Shown: positions 7,159 to 9,290 of the stretch, in pieces
How positions within the stretch are numbered: the first letter of the stretch is position 1
How the letters are laid out: the number at the start of each line of letters is the position of its first letter
DNA from: Octopus vulgaris
Taxonomy: Eukaryota
Assembly: GCA_951406725.2 (NCBI GenBank)
Contig: OX597815.1
Coordinates: 177,754,001-177,818,000 of the forward strand
Length of the DNA stretch: 64,000 nucleotides
Reading direction: 5' to 3'
Program-made: the position numbers and the translations under genes
The notes under the pieces: generated by a model
The model's database searches: none
The model's input: the letters and a program-made list of their open reading frames with translations, nothing else
Told to the model about the DNA's origin: nothing

Positions 7159-7485
7159 CTGATAAAACAAGTATATACATAGCTGAGAAAAAGAATATGC
7201 ACCAAAATGAATTTTAAAAATATGGAAGACAAGGGTGGTATTTTCTGGTATTTAAGTTATTATATGAGATATTAAGATAGAAAATCGTGCATTATCTGCA
7301 ACTAAATATAGAGGTAATCATTGTTGAATCATTCTTTGATCGAGGAAATGTTTTTGTGCTGAAATTTTATAATTGGGCAATTGCTTCCGTATAAGATGTA
7401 TGTGTGTTTGTATATTCGGTGATCGTTCATCAGTTGATATATACATAACGATAAACATAAGAAGACACTTGCATATATATATATA

Positions 7486-7763
7486 AGTTCAGCAAAAATT
7501 TAGATCCAAATGAATATCGTACTTAATTTAGATGCACCAGAATTTTGTATAGTGTTATCCATAAAAATTTGTGGGGTGATTATAATCAAAATAAGCAACA
7601 AGAAGGACTCCGGTAATTTGGAAAACCTCTATAATGGAAAACCTCTATAATTGGCTGATGAGTACTCAGCATCTTAAATCTGTTGTAATACAACATTTAA
7701 TAAAATGATGTAGTACGAAACGATTGTACCAAATTACCGGAGTCATTCTTGTTGCTTATTTTG

Positions 7764-7769
<6 letters not shown>
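7486..7769. mobile_element. Penelope-like pLTR-derived foldback element between (TA)n tracts
   Basis: 41-bp inverted repeat at 7581-7621 and 7729-7769, an internal direct repeat ggaaaacctctataat, and a hammerhead motif. TA repeats flank both sides. Confidence 0.7.
7649..7735 (+). ncRNA. Type I hammerhead ribozyme with minimal stem III
   Basis: AAUUGG-CUGAUGA(7655-7661)-GUAC..GUAC-GAAAC-GAUU-GUA^CCAAAUU. Predicted cleavage after 7728. Confidence 0.75.
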
Positions 7770-7808
<39 letters not shown>

Positions 7809-7835
7809 ATATATATATGTATATGTATATACAGA

Positions 7836-8154
7836 GAATGGAGTAGATAAGATCCGAGCTACATATGTTTCATAGCGAGACGGAGCATTGGAAATGGTAA
7901 ATATCCAAGCGAGGTGTATACCGCAGGCTACTCTTCAGGCCAAGGATGTCTTGATTAAATGAAATTTTAGATTGTCTGATATAATCTTCCATGTGTTAAA
8001 GCGTACTTCCTTGCAACAATGTAAACTTTCATTTAATCAAGATATCCTCGGCGGGGAGAGCAGCCTGCAGTACACACCTGGCTTGGATATTTACCACTTC
8101 TAAGGTTCCACTCGCCATGAAACATAAGTAGCCCGGATCTTATCTACTCCATTC
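7836..8154. mobile_element. Foldback element (arms about 140 bp) carrying a hammerhead motif
   Basis: gaatggagtagataagatccgagctac... mirrored by ...gtagcccggatcttatctactccattc; abuts (TA)n on the left. Confidence 0.75.
7854..7945 (-). ncRNA. Type I hammerhead ribozyme with long stem II
   Basis: CCUUGGC-CUGAAGA-GUAGC..GCUAU-GAAAC-AUAU-GUA^GCUCGG, with palindromic CAUAUG at stem III. Confidence 0.7.
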
Positions 8155-8159
8155 CTTAA

Positions 8160-8372
8160 CTCTTGTATTCTTATCCACATACACAACAATCCTGGTCGCC
8201 AAACGTAAAATATCAAGAGAACTTTCAGTATATCGTACTTCGATACGAAACAAATCCACAACCTTCCGTCTCCATAAACAACTATTGTCACCTAAATTTG
8301 CTGTTTGTATATTTACTACGGATTGCTTGAAGCTAACCGCAGAAAATACAGAACCCCTACGATGTAGCACAT
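8160..8372 (-). pseudogene. Candidate relic exon of the minus-strand fossil gene
   Basis: Open frame DVLHRRGSVFSAVSFKQSVV..RIVVYVDKNTR after a ctgcag acceptor, in non-repetitive sequence. Confidence 0.3.
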
Positions 8373-8389
8373 CTGCAGCAGTAGTTGGT

Positions 8390-9290
8390 CTCAATTTACA
8401 GATGGGCTGAGGATAATAGTATGCAGTTTAATGCTGAAAACTTCCAAGCCCTGTGCTACCAGCATCCAAAACCGAATATGAAACTTACAGGGTACACTGG
8501 TCCAGATGGGATTACAATCCCAGAGCCTAAATCAGTGTGGGACCTGGGTTTCGACATGAGTGATGATACCTCTTTCCAAGTTCACATTACCAGGATGGCG
8601 ACAAATTGCAGACGACTGACTGGCTGGATCCTAAGAACATTCAGAACCAGAGATAAGGAAACCATGATGGTTCTCTGGAGGGCATTCGTCCTCGGCTGCC
8701 TGGATTACTGCTCCCAGCTAAGATCACCCAAAAGTGTAAAATTAACAGCGAACCTTGAAGCAATCCAGCAAAGCTTCACACAGATCATCTCATTGCAACA
8801 GCTCGGCTCCTGGGAAAAGCTGAAACAGCTAAGACTCTACTTCCTGGAGCGAAGGCGGGAGAAGTATGCAATAATATATATCTCGAAGTTCCTGGAAGGA
8901 CTTGTGCCACATTTTGGCATTGAAAGCTACACCAATGCCACAACGGGTCGACACTGTACACTACCAAAGATCCCAGCAATGACATCGCGCTTCAGGACCA
9001 GTTACTGCAACAGCCTGGGTTTCAGGGGGCTACAGATTTTTAATAGTCTCCAAAAAGCCTGAGGAACCTGCACAAAGTAGATCTAGGCGTTTTTTAATCA
9101 AGACTGGACCTCTTCCTGTCGAGAGTACCAGATCGATCTATCTCAAGGCAAGAGGTGCAAATGAAGGTAGCGACATCAACATCCCTTATTCACCAAATGC
9201 CACATATTAGAGGAGGCTCTCAGTAAAAGCTGTGTAGCAAAACGGCGGTGCCCCAGCATGGCCACGGATCTGAGCTGAAACTACAAAAAA
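8390..9290 (+). mobile_element. 5'-truncated CR1/L2-group LINE (RT C-terminal region and 3' tail)
   Basis: ORF 8385-9062: YRWAEDNSMQFN, DLGFDMSDD, GWILRTFRTRD, LDYCSQL, LERRREKY. Tail ggcggtgccccagcatggccac. Confidence 0.85.

Follow-up and report, generated by a model that had tools for sequence, protein, structure and literature searches.

The locus at 7473-7831 of the window, the whole 64,000-nt stretch of Octopus vulgaris DNA that was analysed, is an ordinary Penelope insertion in (TA)n: the copy is truncated, has two arms, comes from a Hydra-clade-like element and shows a shape that is already known. In the wider family, an excess of arm ends at the predicted hammerhead cut is real in subfamily D and weak in the other subfamilies. 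The best explanation, to which a probability of roughly 0.6 is given, is a head-to-head insertion of two cDNAs that were primed on opposite target strands and joined through a 3-nt microhomology; a minority of the family's cDNAs would run off cleaved RNA, and the arm in the window would have ended by ordinary truncation.

In the numbering used here +1 denotes the base that directly follows the predicted cut (7729) and -1 the A of the GUA triplet (7728), and an arm end is the last element-matching base when a copy is read toward its own 5' end. From left to right the locus consists of (AT)n, an inverted arm from +140 to +1, TGG, a 17-nt forward piece, TAAT, a forward arm from -97 to +41, and (TA)n. 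The left side of the target, (AT)n at 7473-7486, has TATAA (7482-7486) in common with the 3' end of the inverted arm. This arm occupies 7482-7621 on the minus strand and matches L329, a natural copy of the element, at 91% over 140 nt; against L020 it shows 142 matches in 149, TA included. A sequence-only reading had described the arm as 7581-7621, the reverse complement of 7729-7769. That segment (minus strand) does pair with 7729-7769 at 40 of 41 positions, the single mismatch being the pair 7605/7745, GTA does lie at 7726-7728 and pairing does fail at the next pair, 7622/7728; the chance expectation for such an inverted repeat is E 3e-8 for 37 nt in a search of 2.8 Gb, the size of the assembly in which the window lies. 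The arm does not start at 7581, however, as its real extent takes in a tail from about +42 to +140 (7482-7580, minus strand) that is present on the inverted arm only. Because these 99 nt have no counterpart on the right side, the arm is not a local copy of 7729-7769. The forward arm (7632-7769, plus strand) is a 5'-truncated pseudo-LTR (pLTR), about -97 to +41, that spans an intact hammerhead and matches both pLTRs of L329 at 96% over 142 columns, with 1885 first-look candidates in the 2.8-Gb assembly (G000). Its TTATA end runs into the right side of the (TA)n target (7765-7831). The two arms end 3' at different points, +140 and +41, both of them at TTATA and both abutting (TA)n.

At the junction, TGG (7619-7621) is common to the inverted arm and the forward segment, in the family context before GGAAAACC. 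Since TGG fits both arms the true break may lie anywhere among four positions, and of the claim that the arm stops exactly at the cut what survives is that the maximal match ends at +1; its exactness is blurred. The first, short copy of the forward segment (7619-7635, plus strand) ends in TAAT (7632-7635), the family letters before the second copy, and in family copies GGAAAACCTCTAT is preceded by T, the context reading TTAAT in 103 of 135 and TTGAT in 17 of 135. The direct duplication that had been noticed at the junction is confirmed as a 16-nt repeat (7619-7634 and 7635-7650) that is private to this site: among 442 loci it occurs in only two entries, both of which are the window site itself.

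The parent element is represented by two near-full-length, frameshifted copies, L329 (G000:C14:19642300-19647300) and L330 (G000:C1:70123900-70127900), in which reverse transcriptase (RT) pieces are followed by an endonuclease-like domain, all between two direct pLTRs. L329 is about 3.6 kb long, partly owing to internal microsatellites, and encodes the motifs RFRWI and ADKTG, a CxCx5C linker (CNCRIRSKC) and, in a C-terminal endonuclease (EN)-like domain, CxxC (CQLC) and CxH (CIH). Atlas look-alikes of the parent proteins at 0.93-0.97 carry RVT_1 in 17% of members and GIY-YIG in 22%; Pfam returned no match on the parent proteins, and a PDB search returned a maturase RT (E 0.18) as the sole match. 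The marks of an EN+ Penelope-like element (PLE) are all found, namely RT and then GIY-YIG flanked by direct pLTRs, an inverted copy that lacks its 5' part, and a tail on one side. To judge by its motifs the parent would be a Hydra-clade-like PLE, as L329 shares with the description of that clade DKT, the CxCx5C linker, a C-terminal EN with CxxC and CxH, the hammerhead and (TA)n targeting, and differs from it in having RWI instead of RWK and a length of about 3.6 kb instead of under 3 kb (PMC8557442). Two other candidates were rejected. The Naiad clade, with its N-terminal EN, DKA and no hammerhead, is ruled out by the C-terminal EN-like domain, DKT and hammerhead, and a non-LTR retrozyme, which would form head-to-tail hammerhead tandems, is ruled out by the single core and lack of such a tandem in the window and by the dispersal of the copies. 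Several thousand arms of the family lie in the genome, divided among at least four subfamilies whose hammerhead stems covary; anchor matches number at least 2,164 in A-C, which include the window copy, and 2,483 in D. Copies of the family have two 3' ends, both TTATA (+41 and +133 in L329; +140 in the window), and are often head-to-head pairs in which a single arm carries the tail.

PLE insertions in which a 5'-truncated copy is inverted and a tail lies on one side have been described before (Craig et al. 2021, PMC8557442). The window resembles those elements in its 5'-truncated pLTR, the inverted copy at the 5' end of that pLTR, the one-sided tail, (TA)n and the pLTR hammerhead, and differs in tail length, about 95-100 nt here and 30-40 nt there; the relation between breakpoint and ribozyme cut that is examined here is not drawn in the cited passages of that paper. 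It is proposed that the endonuclease nicks both target strands of (TA)n and that the two cDNAs would start at the two TTATA sites, each primed on a different target strand. Their far ends would be joined through TGG, and the forward strand would slip back once at TAAT, the likely origin of the 16-nt duplication. In the anole element Poseidon PAc two internal RT start sites explain the tail (Frangieh et al. 2024, PMC11167929), and the proposed double priming fits those two sites and the cutting of two strands; PAc and the window family share an AT-rich target, and the window family would also resemble PAc in having two RT start sites at the limits of the tail and cuts in both strands. A single cDNA that folded back and copied itself into a second arm would suit many short loci of the family, whose partner arm begins 3-20 nt downstream of the end of the first arm, but it is given almost no weight and is excluded at the window locus. 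There the forward arm reaches about 95 nt further upstream than the inverted arm and holds sequence absent from the latter, so that the fold-back of one cDNA could not have made it. It is likewise highly improbable that the junction goes back to an assembly error, or to an older copy that later received an insertion or lost a segment. At the site the arm has GG and then TA, which is what the element targets, and no junction-spanning public contig is listed for four runs, which proves nothing either way; the outer ends, however, correspond to the two 3' ends usual in the family and abut (TA)n, nothing remains of an older copy, and the same architecture recurs at dozens of other loci.

The forward arm contains a type I hammerhead core at 7655-7728, with CUGANGA and GAAA boxes, an NUH triplet and the type I order. 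On the plus strand, the 5' strand of stem I (7649-7654) offers TTGG for pairing with CCAA at 7729-7732, and the catalytic box CUGAUGA (7655-7661) reads CTGANGA in 130 distinct copies, which were selected on that motif. Stem II (GTAC/GTAC) with a long internal region follows at 7662-7716 (plus strand), and 7717-7728 (plus strand) comprises the GAAA box (7717-7720), a 2-bp stem III with the near-palindromic ACGAUUGU, and GUA (7726-7728). By the rules of hammerheads the cut falls after the GUA triplet, which predicts it here between 7728 and 7729. Stem I pairs in 88% of positions across the 130 distinct copies, compared with 76% when partners are shuffled (at most 81% in 500 shuffles), and covaries between subfamilies through the compensatory swaps GC/AT, TA/CG and TA/GC, which amount to few independent events because the copies are related. 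The long stem II region and the 2-bp stem III are atypical for a hammerhead. Rfam gave no hammerhead at gathering score in the window and none among the 13 matches at E<=10 in 7400-8300, and in free folding of 7640-7745 the hammerhead is not the minimum-energy monomer, as expected for a 2-bp stem III. The near-palindromic stem III region is predicted to form a self-duplex, and with it a dimer helix, of -5.8 kcal/mol, or -10.0 kcal/mol for a common variant. PLE hammerheads have been described as minimal variants for which dimer action is proposed, those of metazoans having low cleavage activity in vitro (Cervera and De la Pena, PMC4209133), and their function in PLEs has been called unclear (Craig et al., PMC8557442).

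The sequence-only reading had suggested plotting the breakpoints of all copies against the GUA, with uniform scatter counting against cleavage. Such a plot gives a divided answer: the ends are widely scattered and form no lone peak in A-C, and a significant peak at +1 appears in D. An unselected set of 60 distinct arms was drawn from the first 68 of the at least 2,164 A-C matches, five rows being omitted, two of them with ends at +9 and +4. The ends in this set run from +10 to beyond -400, and 0 of 60 fall at +1. The hazard of ending is 0.96% per nt at +11 to +1, 0.97% at -1 to -10, 0.2-0.3% at -11 to -60 and 0.6-0.8% at -61 to -250, the last being probably inflated by divergence from the references. 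As the hazard is equally high at -1 to -10 and at +11 to +1, the low stretch may represent a trough across the core and not a step, a point that rests on few events and weighs against the best explanation. Most arms cross the cut, which means that most templates were uncut; the share of arms that end at the predicted cut is about 1.3-1.5%.

Filters that used two- and four-mismatch patterns were biased by the partner sequence, one of them catching 4 of the +1 junctions, and same-anchor and one-mismatch designs were used for that reason. With one mismatch in A-C, 47 of 48 matches at +1 were examined and gave 20 junctions, or 18 after removal of one point mutant and one duplicate, compared with 3 junctions in 27 at -8 (p=0.015). 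At +9 there were 36 in 67, or 34 without two point mutants, and 26 of these lie at a palindrome. Filtered matches gave 78 junctions among 97 examined (of 109 matches) at +11 to -4 and 19 of 27 at -9 to -18, a 2.4-fold difference per anchor and position. In the same-anchor count all 68 matches were examined and duplicates and double-counted arms removed, which left 10 ends at +1, 0 at -1, 8 at -2, 3 at -3, 4 at -4, 10 at -5 and 13 at -6. Position +1 holds 10 of the 48 ends over these seven positions (p=0.14), and the pooled ends at +1 to -2 are not above those at -3 to -6 (p=0.81); the lack of a lone +1 peak in the window's own subfamilies is a further point against the best explanation. Ends at +9 outnumber those at +1 in A-C, and since both +9 in A-C and +7 in D are well used, microhomology can make peaks as high as that at +1. 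The joins at +1 themselves are a different matter, as 16 of the 18 in A-C match over 0-2 bases or contain inserted letters, so that local homology fails to account for them. Joins that need no more than 1-2 matching bases recur at +1 in all four subfamilies, with 3 in A, 5 in B/C and 5-6 in D.

Subfamily D, which has different stem I letters, served as an independent test that was set before its data were seen. Its 99 matches, of which 73 were checked on loci and 26 classed from eight adjacent bases, place 23 ends at +1 (plus 3 duplicates), 12 at -1, 12 at -2, 7 at -3, 4 at -4, 3 at -5 and 8 at -6. Position +1 holds 23 of the 69 ends over +1 to -6 (p=5e-5), and 47 ends at +1 to -2 stand against 22 at -3 to -6 (p=2e-5). 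A search with one mismatch is consistent with this, as the first 30 of its 128 matches contain 9 true junctions (11 minus one point mutant and one deletion). On the 3' side, 97 matches on 2,619 anchors gave junctions in 24 of the first 30, the commonest end being +7 (8 of 24 checked), and on the far 5' side there were 77 matches, 30 of them checked. The resulting rates, which rest on estimated filter capture, are 0.9% per nt at +8 to +3, 1.5% at +1, 0.7% at -1 to -2, 0.3% at -3 to -6 and 0.44% at -7 to -18. The rate at +1 is about four times that of the 5' side but 1.7 times that of the 3' side, an excess over the 3' side that is not clear (p=0.06) and counts against the best explanation.

These patterns could also arise with no cleavage recorded at all, if RT stalled at the folded, uncut hammerhead (its core or dimer helix) or if palindromes near the site favoured joins, an account that is a serious alternative, though held to be less likely than not. 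It draws on the frequent A-C ends at -2, -5 and -6, positions that need an uncut template, on the self-complementary words that flank the site and are used by many joins, and on the poor cleavage of metazoan PLE hammerheads in vitro (PMC4209133). It is at odds with D, where the maximum lies at +1 and declines through -1 and -2 as chance matches to T or TA predict, and follows the cut although the stem I letters differ between subfamilies, and with the sparse matching at most A-C joins at +1. Under the best explanation, dimeric self-cleavage would be the source of the +1 excess, and a minority of cDNAs would likely run off the 5' end of the hammerhead-cleaved RNA; a step and peak at +1 together with short partners would be the trace of such a minority of cleaved templates, both of them cut if the ribozyme acts as a dimer.

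The partner arms bear on this point. For arms that end at +1, the partner begins 3' of the cut, and so lacks the ribozyme as well, in 15 of 17 cases in A-C and 20 of 23 in D; in A-C the 15 of 17 compares with 14 of 29 for arms ending at -2 to -6 (p=0.01), the 14 being made up of 12 by script and 2 tail partners added by hand. An automatic partner classifier was kept out of the final counts, as it mis-assigned many intact copies, and the partner pattern was noticed after looking at the A-C data, the D count being without a formal control. In A-C the accumulation at +1 is seen among longer arms, of which 8 of 22 end there (p=0.009), and not among shorter ones, with 1 of 16. It is somewhat less than an even bet that the genome record of the family documents self-cutting of the hammerhead in the germ line, with the cut 3' product being packaged and reverse-transcribed. 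On the same tentative reading the distinct tiny palindromic insertions would have both arms from cleaved RNA, as a dimeric hammerhead gives, and the longer arm would end at the first base beyond GUA in four subfamilies whose stem I letters differ.

For the window copy itself the matter stands differently. The arm might be cDNA that ran off the self-cleaved 3' product and then, through TGG at its free end, annealed to another template that was uncleaved, and this reading is consistent with the maximal match that ends at +1, with the over-use of +1 in D and among the longer A-C arms, with the tail on the arm, as for a cDNA primed at +140 on cleaved RNA, and with similar joins at L037 and L580, which resemble that of the window. 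TGG, however, leaves the end anywhere from +4 to +1, and the partner comes from upstream of the cut and spans an uncut ribozyme, a class in which the cut is not over-used (1 of 16 in A-C; 3 of 23 in D). A blurred end in a class without excess makes run-off unlikely for this copy, and it is more likely that the arm ended at the cut by ordinary truncation. The earlier view that the arm is element cDNA joined by short homology to a second element segment is upheld; the view that it is a fossil of in vivo cleavage is not, since the 3-nt microhomology and a partner spanning the intact ribozyme weaken the inference at this locus, and such a record is plausible for the family instead.

The nearest known systems differ in instructive ways. 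Cleavage is dispensable in vitro for PAc and no RNA-seq reads begin or end at its site as reported by Frangieh et al. (PMC11167929), compared with about 1.3-1.5% of genomic arms here, and the anole result counts against the best explanation. For the octopus sequence no RNA data set was listed, and the runs listed were all contigs, in which RNA ends do not show. The R2 element with its HDV-like ribozyme (Eickbush et al. 2013, PMC3774820) follows a like logic, in that cDNA ends at the cut and is joined by chance microhomology, but it differs from the window family in ribozyme and element class, and its cut defines the end of full-length copies, whereas here no more than a small class of the scattered truncations can be ascribed to the cut. 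Non-LTR retrozymes (PMC7229834; bioRxiv 10.64898/2026.07.22.740005) are alike in having a type I hammerhead with predicted dimer action and a relationship to PLEs; they form head-to-tail tandems, whereas the window holds a head-to-head piece, one of many dispersed copies, of a PLE that codes for protein. In the main texts of the open-access literature, judged by titles, opening lines of abstracts and selected passages, no report was found that places the ends of PLE insertions relative to the hammerhead cut. The family-level excess bears on whether and why PLE hammerheads cut in vivo. If it holds, assemblies alone would provide a cheap read-out of ribozyme activity for each subfamily, most insertions would come from uncut RNA with cleavage mainly yielding short dead-end copies, and a limiting or processing role would be favoured over a required step.

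Several further observations concern the junctions and their surroundings. A head-to-head junction with a changed letter pattern between its two arms (ends +9/+4) recurs in L051/L071, L145 and L146 and also inside L091 and L188; it represents three separate loci in two subfamilies, perhaps because the repair of a short hairpin has repeatedly had the same result. In A-C some 20 mini-insertions that form perfect palindromes, with ends at +9 to +14, are joined through a self-complementary 6-mer (for example L289, L291, L311, L314, L344, L350), and this palindromic join is the commonest single junction seen in subfamily A. The junctions of L091, L188, L416 and L448 contain several short pieces templated by the ends of the arms, as if end joining had involved several rounds of re-priming. 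A subfamily D copy about 51 kb to the left of the window (L462, G000:C2:177702908) also has an arm that ends at the cut. Within the window, a second inverted repeat (7882-7975 and 8016-8109) has 94-nt arms that are 84% complementary; it does not belong to the PLE, and related pieces occur in L024. A 225-codon open frame at 8385-9059, for which Pfam gave no match and of which a similar piece occurs in L011, presumably resembles the end of a LINE reverse transcriptase.
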